From an uncultured Granulosicoccus sp. (GTDB taxonomy: Bacteria > Planctomycetota > Planctomycetia > Pirellulales > Lacipirellulaceae): DNA of 64,000 nt. The notes under the pieces are model-generated. The model searched no databases. It was given only the letters and a program-made list of their open reading frames with translations, and was not told the origin of the DNA. The stretch covers positions 1,747-65,746 of the forward strand of contig CAXMSB010000159.1 of NCBI GenBank assembly GCA_964195615.1, read 5' to 3'. A program made the translations under genes and the position numbers. This document shows, piece after piece, positions 26,450 through 34,895 of this stretch (position 1 is its first letter; each line of letters begins with the position of its first letter).

Positions 26450-26580
26450 CGGGCACTTTTACCGGCGGGGGAGGCTCGGCGAAGGGAAGCGGCGCGTAGC
26501 AGGATGCGGGGAGAGTACCGCACGGCAATTGCTAGCGTCAAGAGAGACGGCTCGCGATCCAGATTCACGGTGCAGTGCTC

Positions 26581-26649
26581 TGTGGGAGGCGTCTCCGACG
26601 GCGACAGTCCCAATCCAAGCTCATATCGCCGTCGGAGACGCCTCCTACA
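26581..26649. repeat. REP doublet, family A, at left island boundary
   Basis: TGTGGGAGGCGTCTCCGACGGCGA / TCGCCGTCGGAGACGCCTCCTACA. Confidence 0.92.
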
Positions 26650-26923
26650 TGGCACTACCCTTCCTTCCTAGATTGAAAATGAAAGACCCTGGCGTCCGCA
26701 AGGTTCTCAGAGAGACGATTGGTAGCGGTGCTGGCAGACGATATCCAAGCCGACCTTCTTGTCTCCCCTTGGAGGGGACGTACTGGGTCTCCCCTGATTT
26801 TCTTTCTTCCTGTATTTCCATGCGTCCAAACTTGTAACGGTATCCCCCTCATTCCAACGACTTGTCGTTGGCTCAGGAACCCTTGACGCTCTAGATATTC
26901 GACAAGGAATTCGTTAACCCCAA

Positions 26924-26952
26924 GTCGCCGGGCAACCCCCGGCGGCTTTTTT
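26924..26952 (+). terminator. Rho-independent terminator
   Basis: GTCGCCGGG-CAACC-CCCGGCGGC-TTTTTT. Confidence 0.7.
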
Positions 26953-26968
26953 CGTGTGCCCTATGGGC

Positions 26969-27243
26969 ATTGCCGCTGGCCGTGTTGCCGATGAGTGTGT
27001 TGTTGTCATTGTCGGAGTCGAGGAAGAAGCCGATGTGGTTATTGCCACTGGCTGTATTGCCCTTGAGCGTGTTGCCGTTGCCGCCCAAGAGGAAGCTAAA
27101 TCCGTCGAAGTTGTTGTCGCTGGCCGTGTTGCCGGTGAGCGTGTTGCCGTCGCTGCCGAAGACGAAGGTGAACCCATCGCCACCATTGTTACCGCTGGCC
27201 GTGTTGCGGATAAGCGTATTGGTGTCGCTGGCGGCGACCCCAA
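26969..27243 (-). pseudogene. Fragment of right-handed parallel beta-helix (NosD-like) repeat protein
   Basis: Four ~23-aa repeats: NTLIRNTASGN, NTLTGNTASDN, NTLKGNTASGN, NTLIGNTASGN; no start. Confidence 0.85.
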
Positions 27244-27810
27244 TGCGAGCGCCGTCACACTTACTTCAGGAGTTGCCGACTACTCAGCGGCTGTGTTTTC
27301 CGGATTTGATATCTACATGAACAGCTACAGCGAGATATCGTGGCACCTCGGTGAGTGGAAGGGGATACTGGCCCATGAAATCGGTCATGCCATTGGCCTC
27401 ACTGATGTGGGTCAATACGTGGAGCCCGACGACCCAACTCTCAGTCAATTCTACGACGACAACTACGACGATACGAGCAGCGCTACAGCACTGGCCACGC
27501 TCAGCAATTCGTTCGCGGACGTCATCGACCCGTTCGACCCAGACAACTCGCCCGCCCTGATGCTCCACAATGTCTGCGAGTTGACAACTCCCGGTGATCC
27601 TGATTCGTGCTTTGGCGATCCGGGCAGCGACACGCCAGGTGTCGATATCTTCATGGGCTTCGGTGGATCCAGTAGCAGTCCCCAAAACGACGACTTTGCC
27701 GGACGACAGCTTTTGTATCCGTATGTAGTTCCCGAGCCGACGTCGTTAGCCATGCTTCTCCTTGGGTTGGCAAGTTTGGTCCAAACGCGGCGGCGAAAGA
27801 GAACGACTCC
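27244..27810 (+). pseudogene. C-terminal fragment of a metzincin-like PEP-CTERM protein
   Basis: HEIGHAIGLTD (27374-); VPEPTSLAMLLLGL...RRRKR (27728-); N-terminus absent and no stop after the sorting signal. Confidence 0.8.
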
Positions 27811-27839
27811 TCGGTTGGGCAAAACTCGAAGTGCCGATG

Positions 27840-28305
27840 GGACGAATTATCAGCTGGAAAACGTCTGGCCGTCGCCCTCAGACAGGGTAAGAGCGGAGGC
27901 CGTCGACTTCTGGCTAGCTGAGTCAGCGCTGCCAGATCGATGCGTTGCCCAACAGCGAGCTCACCAATTGCTGATTGTCGCCAGAGATGAAAGCGGCAAG
28001 GTGGCCGGAGTCAGCACGGCGGTGCCAACATTCGTCCCACAACTCGGATTCGAATGCTTTTACTATCGCACCTTTATTGGTCAGGCGCACCGAGCACAAG
28101 GTCTGCGGAGCAGGCAACTATTCTGGCGAATCATGCGGGAATCGTACCACGTACTCAATACACGTTTTCGTCAGGGCTGCGACTCACACGTACTGGGCTG
28201 CTATGGCGAAATTGAGAGTTCCTCAATCATGCGATCGCAGAACAAATTGGTTTGGCAACACAACGGAATGAACGCCGTCTACATGGGTCGCACGCAAGAC
28301 GGAAG
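27840..28305 (+). pseudogene. Fragment of an unrelated cytoplasmic hypothetical protein, fused in frame
   Basis: Globular-looking segment QLENVW...AVDFW...VAGVSTA...YYRTFI after the PEP-CTERM tail. Confidence 0.5.
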
Positions 28306-28438
28306 GCACACCGTCCGGGCCCGCTGGTGTGCTGATGGCCGTATTGAATGCGACAAGCTCCCTGGCACCCGCGAATGGCGAATCCCGGGATCCGAATATC
28401 GCCGACTACGCGACGGTGGCAAAGCAAGACCTGCCTGA
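28306..28438 (+). pseudogene. C-terminal remnant of an excisionase-like HTH protein
   Basis: TVRARWCADGRIECDKLPGTREWRIPGSEYRRLRDGG resembles TVRxWCxxGRI...WRI..E..RL HTH tails. Confidence 0.55.
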
Positions 28439-28579
28439 TAGACTGGCAAGTGATCGATTAACGTAAGTGCATCGTCATGACATTCCCCTGACACCGAACA
28501 AGGGACAAATAAGGGACACGCGAAGCAGCAAGCTTCAGGCCAAGCAAGGGTAAGAATGTAATACCCCTGCTTTCTTCAG

Positions 28580-28599
28580 TAGCCGAGGCGGGACTCGAA
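28580..28599 (-). other. tRNA 3'-end remnant (T-arm plus acceptor strand, Leu-like), probable att core
   Basis: Minus strand TTCGAGT-CCCGC-CTCGGCT-A; similarity ends after TTCGA. Confidence 0.6.
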
Positions 28600-28928
28600 A
28601 CGATTGACCTACTCGCTGGGTAGACAACAACTTCGGTCGATGCCAGTTTGCAGGCGCTGCAGAATCCCATGCAGTTGGTACTGATTCGCCTCCGATCGCA
28701 GCCGATCTGGCCAAGGTGATCGAGGCGTGGCCGACACTCCCCGAGGCAACACGAGCGGCCATCTTGCGGCTGATCCACACCTGAGAGACTAGCGCCCGGC
28801 ACCCGTCTGCACGAGTCAGTGGGAGGGCCACCAGATCAACACTTAGGGTCACCCCTGGACTGTCCGCTGAGTCTATGAATACAGGCGCGAAACGCGGCTT
28901 GGGACCCATACACGCGAGAGAGGGGCAT

Positions 28929-29173
28929 TTTTGGATCGCCCCCCACCCCTTCGCGCATCGGTTCCATGGCGTATAGTCTCCCTCTTCCTCGCCACCGGTT
29001 TCCTGCTGGCGTGACGTGTGCGTGACGAAAGCGCCGGCATGGGACCCTAATCCGCTCAGAATCTCAACCGCCCCCTCGGGCCTCTCGGCGCAGGGAAGTT
29101 AGTTGACGGCCACAGCGCGCCGCAGGAAACGTAAGTTCCGTTAAGTGCGGCGGGTGTGCACGCCGCCGCAGGA
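28929..29173 (+). repeat. Left arm of ~245-bp inverted repeat
   Basis: Aligns over its length with the reverse complement of 32605-32850, with scattered mismatches. Confidence 0.95.
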
Positions 29174-29204
29174 AATGGACATTCTCAAATCCCCGTCGGT
29201 CGAT

Positions 29205-29460
29205 GAATCCTTATAGGATCACCAGTACACCGGCTTTGTGCGTCTGGCCAGAACGGAAGCCATTGCCGAGGCCTGGAGTTTTGGCTAGACGGAATCACAA
29301 AGCCGCCGCGATAATCGATTCGAAATGGTAGCCAGCTGGGCGTTACGGATAGATGAATCCAGCTGCTAGACGGCTTTGCACAGACCTCCGAACGCCTGGC
29401 TTGCTTCGCCCCCAACGGATCACTCAGATGTAGCTCTCGAAGCTCGCTATAAGGACTCCG
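29205..29460 (+). ncRNA. Putative IS110 bridge RNA
   Basis: Stems 29231-40/29296-305, 29242-54/29278-90, 29329-39/29359-68, 29209-16/29447-54; 9-nt matches to the junction at 29377-85 and 29423-31. Confidence 0.72.
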
Positions 29461-29518
29461 CCGGACGAAGCACGGCCTACCAACTGACTAGAATCTCATC
29501 AAACAAAGGAATCCAATC

Positions 29519-30793
29519 ATGAGCGATCAACCTCATCAACCGGCCCTGTTCATCGGCATCGACTGGGCAGACCAAAAACACGACTGCTATGTTATTGACC
29601 GTGACGGCCAAGGATCTCACCGAGTCATCTCACACTCTCCGGAAAGCATCAATGCCTGGGTGAATGAAATGCTCAAGCTTGCCAAGGGAAAACCGATTGC
29701 AATTATGCTGGAGCAGTCACGCGGGCCACTGGTGTACACACTGATGTTCCGAGAAAACGTGCTGCTCTACCCGGTCAATCCAAAGCAATTAGCCCGCTAC
29801 CGCGAAAGTTATCCTGGTGGAGGTAAAGATGATCCCACTGATGCCAAGTATCTGGCGAGAATGCTTCGTGAACGCATCACGACACTGACGGCCTGGCAAC
29901 CCGATGACAAAAACACACGTCTGCTAGCTCACTTGTCCGAGCAAAGGCGCAAACTAGTCGGAAGTCAGGTCAAACTTCGACAACAGCTCACCGCCCAATT
30001 AAAGCTGTATTATCCAGTGGTTTTGGAACTCTTTGGCAAGGAATGGCAACTGCCATTGCTGCTGGGGATATTGAGTCGTTGGACCGATCCTCGCCAGCTT
30101 CGTCGTGCTGATCGACGGCTAATTCGTCGCGTCTTGAGCGAACATTCGATACGCAACGACGAACGCCAAGATCAGATCATCGCTCACATTCGTTCGGCCA
30201 GGTTACTGAGCGATGATGAAGCACTCCTTGTGCCGTCGGCAATGAGCGTCAAGCTCTTAGGCAGTCAAATTCGACAATCACGCCAGATGATTAAGGAATT
30301 CGATGCCAAAATTGCTGAACAGATGAAGCAGCATCCCGATGGGCACCTCTTTACAAGCCTACGTGGTGCTGGCGCGGCACTCGCCCCACGATTACTCTGC
30401 GCGTTTGGTTCGCAGCGAGACCGCTGGAAAGATGCCGATAGCTTGGCAGCGTTCAGTGGGATCGCACCGGTCACCAAGAAGAGCGGCAAGCTCTGTCAGG
30501 TGCATCGGCGGTTCGCGTGTCCCAAGTATCTACGCCAAACATTTCATGAGTTTGCCGACAGTGCTCGAATGTATTGTCCGTGGAGCAAGGCCCGCTATCG
30601 CCTGCTGCGGGATCGAGGCATGAAACATCATGCTGCCCTCCGGAAACTTGCCCGCAGCTGGATCCGCATCCTCTTCCGCGTGTGGAAACTCGAACACCCT
30701 TCGATTGCGACCGCTACATCGAACAACTGCAACAACGGTGTCCAGAAATCAAACCGTACTTGGAATTGCAAAAATGACGAAAACAACAACTAA
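29519..30793 (+). CDS. IS110 transposase/recombinase with 1-nt deletion near the C-terminus
   Basis: IGIDWADQKH, MLEQSRG, KDDPTDA, FSGIAPVTKKSGK. The plausible true tail TRTPFDCDRYIEQL (stop 30777) is in another frame after TGGAAA at 30683-30688. Confidence 0.93.
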   Translation: MSDQPHQPALFIGIDWADQKHDCYVIDRDGQGSHRVISHSPESINAWVNEMLKLAKGKPIAIMLEQSRGPLVYTLMFRENVLLYPVNPKQLARYRESYPGGGKDDPTDAKYLARMLRERITTLTAWQPDDKNTRLLAHLSEQRRKLVGSQVKLRQQLTAQLKLYYPVVLELFGKEWQLPLLLGILSRWTDPRQLRRADRRLIRRVLSEHSIRNDERQDQIIAHIRSARLLSDDEALLVPSAMSVKLLGSQIRQSRQMIKEFDAKIAEQMKQHPDGHLFTSLRGAGAALAPRLLCAFGSQRDRWKDADSLAAFSGIAPVTKKSGKLCQVHRRFACPKYLRQTFHEFADSARMYCPWSKARYRLLRDRGMKHHAALRKLARSWIRILFRVWKLEHPSIATATSNNCNNGVQKSNRTWNCKNDENNN

Positions 30794-31017
30794 CCACTTG
30801 CGGAAAGCTCAGATGTCTGTGCAGTTTTGGAGCTTCCTTCTTGCCCTGCGGGGTGCCAACCGAGGGGTTTGCTCAACTTCCGTTTCCTGCGGCGGTCAGA
30901 TTCACCTCCGCCTCTTAATGCATGTCTCCAAGTCGCACAAGTGTGAGCCGTCGACACAATTTGCGTCCTTTGTGGACAGCGTTAGCATGTATCATGAAGG
31001 TGATATACACATTCCCC

Positions 31018-31533
31018 TTAAGTGGGCGGTTCCGACGATTTCGAGGGTCTGGCAAAGCGCCCAATCAACTCAGCACACCACAGGCCTACGAATACTAGGT
31101 AGACGGTGAGTGGCGTCCATATATCGAGCGGCGGATTCGGGGGTAGATTGGCCTGAAGCGTCCCATGCCAACTGTAGGCTAGTAACAACATCGTGGCCGC
31201 GCCGCACCATGTTATCCTCTGTGCCAACATCTGCCGTGTGGTCGCAACTCGTTCTGGCGCCAGCCAATACTCCTTGTGGGGCAAATTGATTAGTGTCGTC
31301 GGTACACGACTCATGAAGAGCGGTGGCACGGCAAGAAACATTAGCACAACCACCCAGGAACCAGCCATCACGCCGACGAATTTCTCCTTCGGCATCCAAC
31401 TGTCCGGCTGGCCCTGAGCATTGAAATGGCTCGCCGCAGGGTCCAGCAACTGCGGATAGTAATAGAAAGTTTCACCGCCGACGACAACGGTCGCCCCAAC
31501 AATCACTAGCCACGGCAACCAACAACGAAACAT
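31018..31533 (-). CDS. DUF1648-type membrane protein
   Basis: ASHFNAQGQPDSW, INLPHKEYWL, three TM segments. Confidence 0.8.
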   Translation of the reverse strand: MFRCWLPWLVIVGATVVVGGETFYYYPQLLDPAASHFNAQGQPDSWMPKEKFVGVMAGSWVVVLMFLAVPPLFMSRVPTTLINLPHKEYWLAPERVATTRQMLAQRITWCGAATMLLLAYSWHGTLQANLPPNPPLDIWTPLTVYLVFVGLWCAELIGRFARPSKSSEPPT

Positions 31534-32604
31534 TGCGACGCCTCACTTCGATAACAACTAGGTTAATCCTCCGCCGGTCTATTCGCCCAGCGGTGCGATA
31601 TCTTGCCAAAATTATCGTGCGGCCCATGCACACCCGCCGTTAGACACGGACGTTGTTGAATTGCTTTCGGCGTGAAACGCCGATGGGGACTTAGAAACTA
31701 GCGTCGGACGATGAAGCCGAAGCGTCAAAGCAATTCGCCAAAACTGCTTCGGTCATTTTGTCCGATGCAGGTTCGGGAATTCGATGTCTGCCCCAGACGG
31801 GACAGTCTGGATCATCGAACCAACTGCCGCTAACACCAGTCGGGCGATTTCACCGACCGCATTTGAGAATAGCCGGCTTCGACGCTTGGAAGGGGGCAAC
31901 CCACCCGTGCATCCAATCGTTAACCTCCAGGGTGCGGCGGTGTGCACAACCGCTGAGCTTAGCGAACGTTCGTTAACCTGCTCACGTGACCGTGTACTAG
32001 CCCGCTAGCAAAATCCCTCGTACCAATAATCTCTGCTGGTTGGTACGCCGTCGCTAGTTTGGTAGTCACCGTTTCTGGCTTCCCAAGTACCAGTTATTAT
32101 AATGCTAGAGTGCCATTCAACTGTTTAACCTCGAAAAGCCGGATTACTCCACGTGAATAAAATCAATAAGTAATGGACCGAGACTGCCGCATCGCGAGAG
32201 TTTGGCATCCCTTCGACGACTTTAAGACATGCCTCGACACGAGGCGACATCGAGACTGCTACGACGGCCTGCGGACTACCATTGCTATATGGTCCATCGA
32301 TTCAGAAATATAAACGGAAATATCGGCCTAACAACAAGATCAGCGGTGTCATCCGCCGTCGCCGTACAGCCGTAAGAAGCAAAGGGTTCATTCACGCAGT
32401 GCCAGATTCATCTATGCCCCAGGGTTCGGCGTTATGTGGATTGAGAGCGTTCTGGGGGCCAGCCATAAAAGGCAATCGCAAAGATACGCAAATCACCTGT
32501 GCTACATGCAAAGGGAGGGCAACGAGCAAGACTGTCTCTTAACCGGTCCTGAGGTCGCTTGCTCGAAACACAGATTGCACACTTCGGTCTTCTTGGCTGC
32601 CGTA

Positions 32605-32850
32605 TCCTGCGGCGGAGTGCACACCCGCTGCACTTAACGGAACCTACGTTTCCTGCGGCGCGCTGTGGCCGTCAACTAACTTCCCTGCGCCAAGAGGCCC
32701 CGAGGGGGCGGTTAAGTTTCTGAGCGGATTCGGGTCCCATGCCGGTGGTTTCGTCACGCACATGTCACGCCGGCTGGAAACCGGTGGCGAGGGGATGGGA
32801 GACTATACGCCATGGAACCGAGGCGCGAAGGGGTACCCCCGGATCCAAAA
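32605..32850 (-). repeat. Right arm of ~245-bp inverted repeat
   Basis: Reverse complement of 28929-29173. Confidence 0.95.
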
Positions 32851-33052
32851 TTCCCCCAGCGCACTTACATGATACCCCTATCCACACGGACAGTTGCAAC
32901 ATGCTTCAACACTCCACGGAAGACGCTCACAGTGACCGCAGCACGTGACTACAGCACACCAAACACCCGATTGTAGCCTCGGCTGCGAACGGACTGGGGT
33001 GGGTGGGTCCCGACACGATGCACTGACGGCGCACGGAGTGGGCCAGCACTCG

Positions 33053-34284
33053 CTAGCCGATCGCCATTGCCACCTCCATCCCCTTGGCAAAGTCACGCTC
33101 GGCGTACACTTGGGTCACGCCCAGCTTACTATGGCCGAGTATCACTCCCGCCGCCTCCAGGCCAAATTCTCGACGGATTTCGGTGGCCGCGGCGTGGCGT
33201 AGCTGGTTGGGTGACCAGTGGTGCTCTGACTGCCACTCGCGAAGTTCCTGCTTCTCGGCTTCGGTGAACTTAGAAAGCAGTTTGTAGCCCAACTTCGGGT
33301 GAGGAAAGGCCTTGTCACACCCGCGATTGATGGCACGGCGATAGCTGCAAGTCGTGTAGCACTCACCCGCTTCTCGCTTGGGATTGCTTTTGCGTCTTCG
33401 TGAGGGGCTCGGTGGAGTTCTTCTGGTGGATCGTGAGCCGGCATAACGCTTGGCCACGCTATCGATGGGTCGGAAGCAGTACATCGAGACATCGCGGGCC
33501 AGATACCGCAAGAGTATCTCCTGCCCCCTCGGCCCGATGGGGATGATTCGGTCACGCCCGTGGTGCTCGGTCTTGTGGGACTCAGGCCGGTATTCCCAAA
33601 CCTCACCGCTGCGGTCGATATCACACGGTCGCATGATACAGACCTCCCCAGGCCGCATCCCCGTCAGACGCTGTAGGCGGGTCATATCGGCCACTATGCT
33701 AAGCATGTGTACTAGGTAGCCGTGGCTACAGCGGCCACTGGGGGGCTCTCAGGGGCCTCTGTGCGGCCCTTCCGCAGGCCATCCACCGTAGATAGCGCCT
33801 GATGGACGCTCGCGGGAACCAATTCCTTGGAAACTCCCCAGCGAAAGACTCGCCGGACCCGGCTGATGGCGCAGTTGATCCCGGACCTACTCCGCCCCGT
33901 GGAAATCAGCCTTTGTCGGACTGCCTCAAGTGCCAGCGGTCCGAACTCCCGGGCGGGGCTATTGCCGTACAGTTCCCGGATTGGGCGCAGGGAGGATTTG
34001 ATTACGGCCACTTCGCTGGTCTGCTCGCCGTTCTTGCGATAGTAGCCCTTGGCGAATTTCCAGTAGCGCAAGAGCAACTCCGCTACGGTGAGGTCACTGT
34101 CCTGCCCACTAGCCAGTCCTCGGCCATTGGCTAGCCACTCTTCTATCAGACGGTCGTACTCACGCTTGCTGGTCTTGGTCCCGTGCCGCCCCAGATAGAT
34201 GTCGCGGCCATTGAGGGTGACAACCGCTTGCCCGCTGGCCCTGTGTTTGCGGTACTTGGGAACAGAATTCGATAGTCTTGGCAT
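33053..34284 (-). pseudogene. Tyrosine integrase split by a frameshift (ORFs 33712-34284 and 33053-33706)
   Basis: N-terminal PKYRKHRASGQAVVTLNGRDIYLG; GMRPGE, HKT, NQLRH, LGHS, TQVY. Confidence 0.92.
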
Positions 34285-34310
34285 CGTGCAGTCTCCTATG
34301 GTTCGGACGC

Positions 34311-34332
34311 CAAAACGGTATATACCGTTTTG
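34311..34332. promoter_or_regulatory. Perfect 22-bp palindrome upstream of integrase (candidate operator)
   Basis: CAAAACGGTATATACCGTTTTG, 27-48 nt before the start codon. Confidence 0.55.
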
Positions 34333-34429
34333 CGCCTCTTAAACAACAGGCTGCACTGCCGACCATCGACAGGTATTTCACTCTGGAAATCAGCGGGTTT
34401 CGTAACTTTCAGTTACCCGCATTCCATTA

Positions 34430-34895
34430 TACAGTTCCCTTGCTGGAGATGAAAGAGGATGCCACGGACCGGCTGGCGGGCGCGTTCGGAAAGCTCATCG
34501 CACTGCGGTTCGGCAAGACAATCCGCGAGCTTGAGCCCGATGCGGTGGTGCCGATCCCCATGCACGTCTGGCGAAGACTGTCGCGTCGGGCGAATCCGCC
34601 CGTTTCGCTGGCGGCGACGATCGGTCGACAGTTGGGTCTGCCAGTCGAGACGAATTTGCTCAGTTGGCAGCGCGACACCTCGGCCCAATTGGGCCTCTCG
34701 CAGCAGGGCCGTTTCCGCAACATGCGGGACGTAATGCGCGTTCGGCCCGGCTATCGGTTGGACGCACCACGACTGCTGCTGGTCGACGACATTCTCACCA
34801 CGGGCGCCACTTGCAGCGAAGCGGCCCGCGTGCTGAAACGGAGCGGCGCCGCGGAGGTCTCCGTGGTGGTCGTGGGCCGAACGCCTATTGTTTGA
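34430..34895 (+). pseudogene. comF: ComF-family protein lacking its N-terminus
   Basis: VVPIPMH, QLGLS..GRFRNM, LLVDDILTTGATCSE; upstream part of the ORF is non-homologous island sequence. Confidence 0.8.

Follow-up and report, generated by a model that had tools for sequence, protein, structure and literature searches.

Two ~250-bp inverted arms in a decayed planctomycete island and the mosaic repeat family to which they belong

Two inverted arms around a 3.4-kb interior

The DNA analysed here, a stretch of 64,000 nt on contig CAXMSB010000159.1 of the planctomycete assembly GCA_964195615.1 (called the window below), contains two arms of ~250 bp in inverted orientation. They enclose 3.4 kb with an IS110-family insertion sequence (IS) and a DUF1648 membrane-protein gene, and lie in the remains of a mobile-DNA island between lptF/G and a truncated comF gene. 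The extent of the arms was determined by repeat search, blastn and MAFFT alignment. The left arm (arm L) occupies 28922-29185 on the forward strand and consists of three modules, numbered 1 to 3 from the outside, and the right arm (arm R) occupies 32593-32857 on the reverse strand with the identical module order, inverted. In the repeat search of the window, 28945-29080 paired with 32699-32834 (136 nt, 90%) and 29071-29178 with 32600-32707 (108 nt, 92%); blastn returned one alignment of 253 bp at 89.3% identity (E = 2e-91). When the arms were aligned together with their flanks by MAFFT, homology began with GGGG.A.TTTTGGATC at 28922 and 32857, and ended after CCGCCGCAGGA, at about 29178-29185 and 32593-32600. 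The ~27 differences between the arms allow their reads to be distinguished.

Both arms carry the same series of motifs. TATAGT is found at 28972 (+) and 32802 (−), in each case pointing inward, followed by GTTAGTT at 29098 (+) and 32674 (−) and by GTTAAGT at 29140 (+) and 32632 (−). The motif GCCGCAGGAAA occurs at 29119 (+) and 29165 (+) in arm L and at 32649 (−) in arm R, where GCCGCAGGATA stands at 32603 (−), and a fifth GCCGCAGGAAA lies between the arms at 30883-30893 (−). Written as GCCGCAGGA, the motif occurs six times in the 64-kb window, five times of these at the arms or in the interior. A preliminary description of the window had reported that the arms align throughout, that the inward TATAGT, the GTTAGTT/GTTAAGT motifs, the paired repeats and the fifth copy are located at these places, and that the arms lack coding potential. 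The first two statements are confirmed by the alignment and the positions above. As for the third, no open reading frame (ORF) overlapping an arm matches Pfam, copies of the arm differ by 1-nt indels in alignment, and an Rfam search of 28400-33300 at E ≤ 1 returned just two chance-level matches, none of them for the arm.

The arms are copies of a dispersed repeat

The description of the arms needs one correction, as more copies exist elsewhere in the genome. The assembly is a metagenome-assembled genome (MAG) of 402 contigs and 4.2 Mb (contigs are numbered C below, with the window on C159, and genomes of relatives G), and the ~250-bp unit occurs about seven times in it, an arm having 6-7 further full or partial copies. 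Those outside the window are at C226:393-634 (92.6% identity), C260:21992-22177 (91.9%, without the outer 60 bp), C364:137-329 (85%), C18:14385-14482 (interrupted by the contig end), C58:12530-12590 (module 1 only, i.e. the outer 60 bp) and C151:34290-34537 (75%-diverged, modules 2-3 only). Most of them lie <400 bp from contig ends, which indicates that the repeat disturbs assembly.

Comparison of the copies gave no sign that the two arms of the window form a pair. Arm L is nearer to the copies on C226 (92.6%) and C260 (91.9%) than to arm R (89.3%), neither arm is nearer to its partner than to solo copies in other parts of the genome, and these solo copies have no partner at all. Differences among copies are mosaic, with no grouping by locus. 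The borders between modules were set by partial copies, with module 1 standing alone on C58 and in the related genome G020, and modules 2-3 standing alone on C260 and C151. We found no direct repeat outside 28922 / 32857, no terminal inverted repeats within a single arm, and no empty site of the ~250-bp unit. The arm was also considered as an att site with tRNA similarity and was rejected as such, with 0 matches to the 37 tRNA genes of the genome.

Module 1 is a promoter-like block

Module 1 (28929-28985 in arm L, forward strand) is a 55-bp promoter-like block in which a short hairpin, a C-rich run and TTCGCG are followed, 16 nt further on, by the −10-like box TATAGT (28972-28977, +). Besides this genome, three or more other species of the genus carry module 1, downstream of a mini-ORF that we call WPTLP after its peptide and describe below. 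Four copies in this genome (arm L of the window and those on C18, C226 and C58) lie ~140-210 bp 3′ of such a mini-ORF; module-1-like sequence is likewise found 3′ of WPTLP in G020, G014 and G006. In G020, a related Planctomycetota MAG, the block is 87% identical and is not accompanied by modules 2-3. TATAGT, TATTAGT or GATTAGT occupies the equivalent position in G000, G020 and G014.

Similarity among module-1 copies stops ~10 nt past this box, and the sequence beyond it varies from copy to copy: the arms continue with module 2, C58 with an unrelated leader, a hairpin of the kind described under module 3 and a 486-aa gene, and G020 with a CRISPR array. Moreover, the DNA of module 1 is 92-96% identical within this genome, and the neighbouring WPTLP peptides are just 44-58% identical. 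Shared module 1 with loss of similarity after the −10-like box is the pattern that we infer to be that of a promoter. The earlier interpretation stands in part, in one respect for the outer 55 bp, which behave like a promoter module, point inward and lose conservation ~10 nt past TATAGT in four species. Searches elsewhere yielded little: in 400 genomes of the order, module 1 had marginal BLAST matches only, and an exact-pattern scan gave G020 as the sole match in public genome contigs and 0 matches in viral contigs.

Module 2 is confined to this genome

Module 2 (28986-29117 in arm L, +) is a block of ~130 bp for which a sequence model recovered 7 copies, all in this genome, and 0 in 60 relatives; an exact-pattern scan likewise gave 0 matches in public genome and metagenome contigs. 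Two GCGTGACG boxes with an 11-bp period (29009-29027, +), a candidate protein-binding site, are among its best-conserved parts, and the tandem GTGACG pair is retained in the 75%-diverged copy on C151. Module 2 is probably a protein-binding or leader segment, with the two boxes on one face of the helix. A small outward ORF from a conserved ATG in module 2 was also examined and set aside, its products being Arg-rich, ending in unrelated flanks and matching no family.

Module 3 is a REP-like palindrome doublet

Module 3 (29118-29185 in arm L, +) consists of two imperfect palindromes of the type GCGGCGG-loop-CCGCCGC-AGGAAACGGACGTTA, which resemble repetitive extragenic palindromic (REP) sequences. 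With a strict pattern, 17 such units were detected in the genome vs 2 in a reversed-genome control; ~40 were recognizable when the search was loosened, and the family is also present in the relatives G024, G006 and G042. It is this inner module only that agrees with REP sequences, by its imperfect palindromes of ~35-55 nt and its many dispersed copies. No REP-associated tyrosine transposase (RAYT) gene flanked by REPs was found, as 0 of the 5 Y1_Tnp genes lie on a contig with a REP match.

The fifth GCCGCAGGAAA belongs to a REP-like hairpin of the same kind (30866-30920, −), which fits the unit GGCGG-loop-CCGCC-GCAGGAAACGGAAGTT, starts 45 bp right of the IS and, according to the repeat search, forms a long imperfect palindrome with the REP in which arm L ends. 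A degenerate REP-like palindrome was also detected in the non-coding interior at 31925-31980 (+; hairpin-pattern match at C159:33680-33702). Hence the claim that no named feature accounts for the arms is only half true: it fails for their inner third, which is a REP-like palindrome doublet, and for the fifth motif, which is a REP beside an IS110-family element.

An IS110-family element lies between the arms and outside them

The interior contains an IS110-family insertion sequence at 29209-30823 (+), whose transposase ORF (29519-30793, 424 aa) matches PF01548 DEDD_Tnp_IS110 at 2.2e-30 and PF02371 Transposase_20 at 1.1e-12 in Pfam, and NF033542 in NCBIfam with 162.8 bits vs a cut-off of 140. 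It therefore combines a DEDD (RuvC-like) N-terminal domain with a Transposase_20 C-terminal domain, as IS110-family members do. The ends of the element, CCTTATAGGATC (29209) and GCTCAGATGTCTGTGCA (30823), were set by copies of 82-83% identity in G006 and G004. With these limits the arm lies outside the IS, ~24-30 bp away from it, and the arm as part of the IS110 element is ruled out. For the same reason the arms are not the ends that the enclosed transposase uses. Nor was evidence found that the arm is an end of an IS or of a miniature inverted-repeat transposable element (MITE), since the IS110 limits exclude it and no target-site duplication is present at 28922 / 32857.

REP sequences are well-documented insertion sites of IS110-family elements (PMC1525189, PMC11208160, PMC11187229). 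The IS copy in G006 has a REP ~50 bp right of its end, and the copy in G004 has no REP nearby. The transposase of the window differs from those of four relatives in its last ~30 codons, which are out of frame from ~30690 (30680-30793); the relatives' proteins end in ..RVWQTRTPFDCDRYIEQLQQRCPEIKPYLE, which is here encoded in another frame. The frameshifted sequence is also present in a contig from the Logan collection (ERR13301390), so that the mutation is probably real, and this IS110 copy may be defective. The first ~80-190 bp of the left non-coding region of the IS110 element, the expected place of a bridge RNA, are also found as isolated pieces, with no transposase gene, at C269:758-838 and in G029, G001 and G018.

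The sole non-IS gene between the arms encodes a DUF1648 membrane protein (31018-31533, −; Pfam PF07853, E = 1.9e-8), and the remaining ~1 kb of the interior has no recognizable genes. Look-ups in other assemblies returned one Logan contig and one contig from ENA, both covering interior only and identical to the window. The independent Logan contig is 100% identical over 29551-31714, with the same junction between DUF1648 and the IS, and spans no arm.

The arms lie within a displaced island relic

In G005 and G018, lptF/G and comF adjoin at a distance of ~450 bp. Synteny with these genomes delimits a decayed mobile-DNA island of ~7.9 kb (26546-34440) in the window, from lptF/G to a 5′-truncated comF, as homology to the G005/G018 intergenic region ends at ~26545 and resumes within comF at ~34440. 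The product of comF, a phosphoribosyltransferase-type competence gene, has lost through the island junction ~100 N-terminal residues that hold the zinc-ribbon cysteines (ComF, 34278-34895). The missing 5′ part of comF was searched for across the assembly as a test of inversion and was not found.

The left end of the relic is marked by a 3′ fragment of tRNA-Leu(taa) (28577-28601, −), an att remnant whose positions 28580-28599 (20 nt) match the 3′ end of the gene exactly. The gene itself is at C159:69002-69088, which corresponds to ~67256 on the scale of the window and thus lies past its right edge; it is 38.7 kb rightward of the fragment and inverted, and this suggests that the island end has been moved and inverted. 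The tRNA-Leu gene is followed directly by an integrase gene of its own, different from the one in the island. The window holds no tRNA gene and no second att copy, so that att repeats at both ends of the relic were not found.

The WPTLP mini-ORF (28635-28787, +; ..DLAKVIEAWPTLPEATRAAILRLIHT*) is located 3′ of the tRNA-Leu fragment and marks the tRNA-distal end of small islands; its translation ends ..AWPTLPEATRAAILRLIHT. WPTLP is conserved throughout the order: a six-frame search found matches in 35 of 41 related genomes, several per genome, usually just after a reverse-complement 3′ fragment of a tRNA. In the complete genomes of relatives, WPTLP stands at the tRNA-distal end of islands of ~1.5-8 kb with the tRNA near, and of one island of ~18 kb; four of the relatives' islands have clear att direct repeats (tRNA). 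Three of the four WPTLP ORFs linked to module 1 in this genome follow tRNA fragments, of Leu, Ser-gga and Glu-ctc, and the fragment before WPTLP on C18 is tRNA-like and was matched to no tRNA. The peptide has the pattern ..D.DLA.VI.AW..LPEAIRAGILAMV.. and no Pfam family, and its upstream ‘residues’ are often merely translated tRNA fragment. Taken together, WPTLP seems to be a hitherto undescribed marker for the distal ends of tRNA islands in planctomycetes. Among eight WPTLP loci in relatives no long internal inverted repeats were found, save the ends of an IS3 element.

The right end carries a tyrosine integrase gene, int2 (33053-34284, −; Pfam Phage_integrase), which is split into two frames (33712-34284 and 33053-33706). 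A paralogue at C222:139-1466, 77% identical, is also split between the N-terminal and catalytic halves, and another, on C103, is unbroken and lies directly against tRNA-Ala; the split could be shared decay or a programmed shift. Upstream of int2, 34285-34406 forms the integrase-proximal end of the element: up to 34406 it shares 91% identity with the stretch in front of the C222 paralogue, past this position the two are unrelated, and its counterpart on C103 abuts tRNA-Ala. Two arm copies lie downstream of the 3′ end of int2, arm R in the window and the diverged copy on C151, which stands behind a C-terminal integrase fragment. The arm as a constant feature 3′ of all int2 paralogues was rejected, as C103 shows no significant arm-like sequence. 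In NCBIfam, int2 gave weak sub-threshold matches to Xer-type models (24-32 bits vs cut-offs >220).

Accordingly, 28577-34406 has the canonical order of a mini-island of 5.8 kb, i.e. tRNA fragment, inward WPTLP, interior and inward integrase, and by its gene order and lesions it is a relic, displaced from its tRNA and decayed. The preliminary description was therefore right to place the arms in an integrative element, of which a remnant is left. Two of its more specific suggestions for that element were not supported. Paired attI sites are contradicted by the integrase, which matches no integron-integrase model above threshold, and, instead of a cassette array with attC sites, the locus has the unit twice in inverted orientation, with single copies on other contigs. 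A duplicated origin or packaging region found no support, as no replication or packaging genes were detected.

DISCUSSION

A mosaic repeat at island ends

The arms belong to known kinds of sequence, namely REP-like mosaic repeats, end modules of tRNA islands and a REP-associated IS110 element, and the feature is largely explained by them. We favour, with moderate confidence, the view that each arm is a copy of a lineage-specific mosaic repeat of ~250 bp at island ends, and not half of a dedicated recombination site. Starting from the observed family, modules and contexts and the limits of the IS and the island, we propose how the unit could promote transcription, bind a protein and affect expression. 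Module 1 would be an inward promoter, normally positioned 3′ of the WPTLP mini-ORF at the tRNA-distal end of an island, module 2 a leader with a tandem binding site in its GCGTGACG boxes, and module 3 a set of REP hairpins that may end or protect the transcript or act as barriers. One copy stands behind the WPTLP end and the other behind the 3′ end of the frameshifted integrase of a single island relic. A copy behind each terminal gene of one relic explains why the arms face each other, and convergent transcription from both ends into the interior would be the likely consequence. The IS110-family element would have been inserted later, in the gap between two converging REP units, a frequent behaviour of IS110 elements, and this explains the fifth motif. 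Nothing in the sequence indicates that the two copies act jointly, because they are not closest relatives, solo copies exist, the integrase is broken and the relatives' islands lack such repeats.

Several results weigh against this explanation. Two of about seven copies in 4.2 Mb lie within 4 kb, which is non-random, and to account for this clustering one has to assume that the unit is present at both ends of one island type. The TATAGT site was not called in a consensus promoter scan, because its −35 is weak. Furthermore, the copies have no consistent gene downstream, which makes module 1 a promoter without an obvious common target. The RNA of the arm folds like shuffled sequence (z = −1.0 and 0.0 for the two strands), so that a structured RNA product is unsupported.

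A wider form of the same idea, which we consider doubtful, is that every small WPTLP/integrase island in this species has two inward promoter-operator-REP units inside its terminal genes, in a regular subterminal inverted-repeat architecture. If true, such islands could have convergent transcription across their cargo, or accessory binding arms for the integrase, and module 1 would be a portable island promoter, as beside the CRISPR array in G020.

Alternative explanations

We judge it unlikely that the ~250-bp unit, or the ~190 bp of modules 2-3, moves as a non-autonomous element, either MITE-like or an IS110- or IS200-type derivative lacking terminal repeats, with a specific insertion site 3′ of island-end genes. 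The outer and inner borders are sharp and common to copies with unrelated flanks, copies are ~90% identical next to WPTLP proteins of ~45% identity, and modules 2-3 stand behind different upstream sequences on C260 and C151, all of which a mobile unit would explain. However, terminal inverted repeats, target-site duplications and empty sites were all missing in our searches, the ends of the only IS110 transposase of the genome are unrelated to the arm, and the Y1 transposase genes are on contigs without the repeat. The mosaic differences fit recombination between copies equally well.

The arrangement also invites a reading as an invertible segment (29186-32592), with the arms as recombination sites at which a tyrosine integrase or homologous recombination flips the interior and alters the readout of the promoters. 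The inverted repeat (253 bp, 89% identity) contains long identical runs and does lie beside a tyrosine recombinase gene, and both arms have inward promoter-like boxes. We nevertheless find this improbable, since the integrase is split by a frameshift, the arms are 11% diverged, each nearer to solo copies and with no sign of concerted evolution, the solo copies have no partner, and related islands of other species lack such repeats. The one independent assembly has the same orientation at the IS/DUF1648 part, although it spans no arm. In the known switches of tyrosine recombinases the repeats are short, 10-30 bp. Switches such as fimS and the invertons of Bacteroides resemble the locus in having inverted repeats by a tyrosine recombinase gene and promoter-like boxes, but they flip a short promoter segment, whereas the repeats here are ~250 bp long, diverged, present in multiple copies and placed around 3.4 kb that includes an IS. 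A rare inversion by homologous recombination between 250-bp repeats of 89% identity is possible in principle.

We likewise give little credence to each arm being a small-RNA gene, with a ~190-nt transcript from the TATAGT promoter to the REP hairpins that would act in trans, e.g. in island regulation. Such a gene would account for the promoter-like module followed by a conserved 190-nt segment ending in GC-rich hairpins, and for the module 2 blocks kept in the 75%-diverged copy on C151. Yet Rfam gave no match, the folding energy is like that of shuffles, no U-tract follows the hairpins, and homologues are absent from 60 relatives. The copies are too few and too similar for covariation, and in alifold analysis of five arm copies the variation was too low to inform. 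Finally, that the inverted arrangement is an assembly artefact, with contigs misjoined at the repeat, is very improbable in spite of the 402 contigs and of the other copies lying mostly at contig ends, because the arms differ at ~27 positions and the independent Logan contig, though spanning no arm, is identical over 29551-31714.

Relation to known systems

Mosaics of REP sequences, such as the bacterial interspersed mosaic elements (BIMEs) of Escherichia coli, the REPs of Pseudomonas and REPINs, share with the arms the GC-rich palindrome doublet, the dispersed multi-copy family and the mosaic with other motifs. They differ in that copies here number tens, not hundreds, that no RAYT gene flanked by REPs was found in this genome, and that the unit here includes a promoter-like module and is located at the ends of integrative islands rather than in ordinary operon gaps. 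REP-inserting IS110 elements (IS621, ISPpu9 and ISPpu10; PMC1525189, PMC11208160, bioRxiv 10.1101/2025.01.17.633520) are similar to the present one in lacking terminal repeats and, here, in the position between two converging REP-like hairpins. The insertion here is 25-45 bp outside the hairpins instead of inside, and the related copy in G004 is without a REP nearby.

With islands at tRNA genes, the relic shares an exact 3′ fragment of tRNA-Leu at one end and an inward-reading tyrosine integrase at the other, and relatives share the tRNA fragment and the WPTLP end, with clear att direct repeats. In contrast to such islands, it lies off its tRNA gene, its second att is gone, its integrase is frameshifted and the host gene is truncated; long internal inverted repeats are unusual for them and present here.

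These comparisons matter in three respects. An inverted repeat of 250 bp that looks like a recombination device is corrected to two copies of a family that also breaks MAG assembly. The conserved end module of islands (tRNA fragment, WPTLP mini-ORF and promoter-like block) helps to delimit small tRNA islands of this group of planctomycetes. Moreover, an IS110-family element among REP-like hairpins is here seen in a planctomycete, which bears on the natural target choice of bridge-RNA elements.

Other observations at copies of module 1

In G020 (G020:C7 1-1220), module 1 lies 3′ of a WPTLP mini-ORF, and 55 bp separate it from a CRISPR array with 15 or more repeats of 37 nt (GCTTCAATGGGGCCGCAGTCACGTGACTGCGGAAAGC), which may be island-borne. 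G020 has two Cas1 genes and the genome of the window has none. Modules 2-3 as a degenerate CRISPR leader or repeat were considered and rejected, as alignment to the G020 leader past module 1 is weak, Cas1 is missing from this genome and no array was found in it. We do not claim module 1 as a CRISPR leader promoter either, as the G020 array could run in either direction from it. On C58 (C58:11299-12075), a Doc-type toxin gene (MTEPVWITEELARAIHSRQLAEHGG..) follows a small ORF just outside the island end formed by the tRNA-Glu fragment, WPTLP and module 1.

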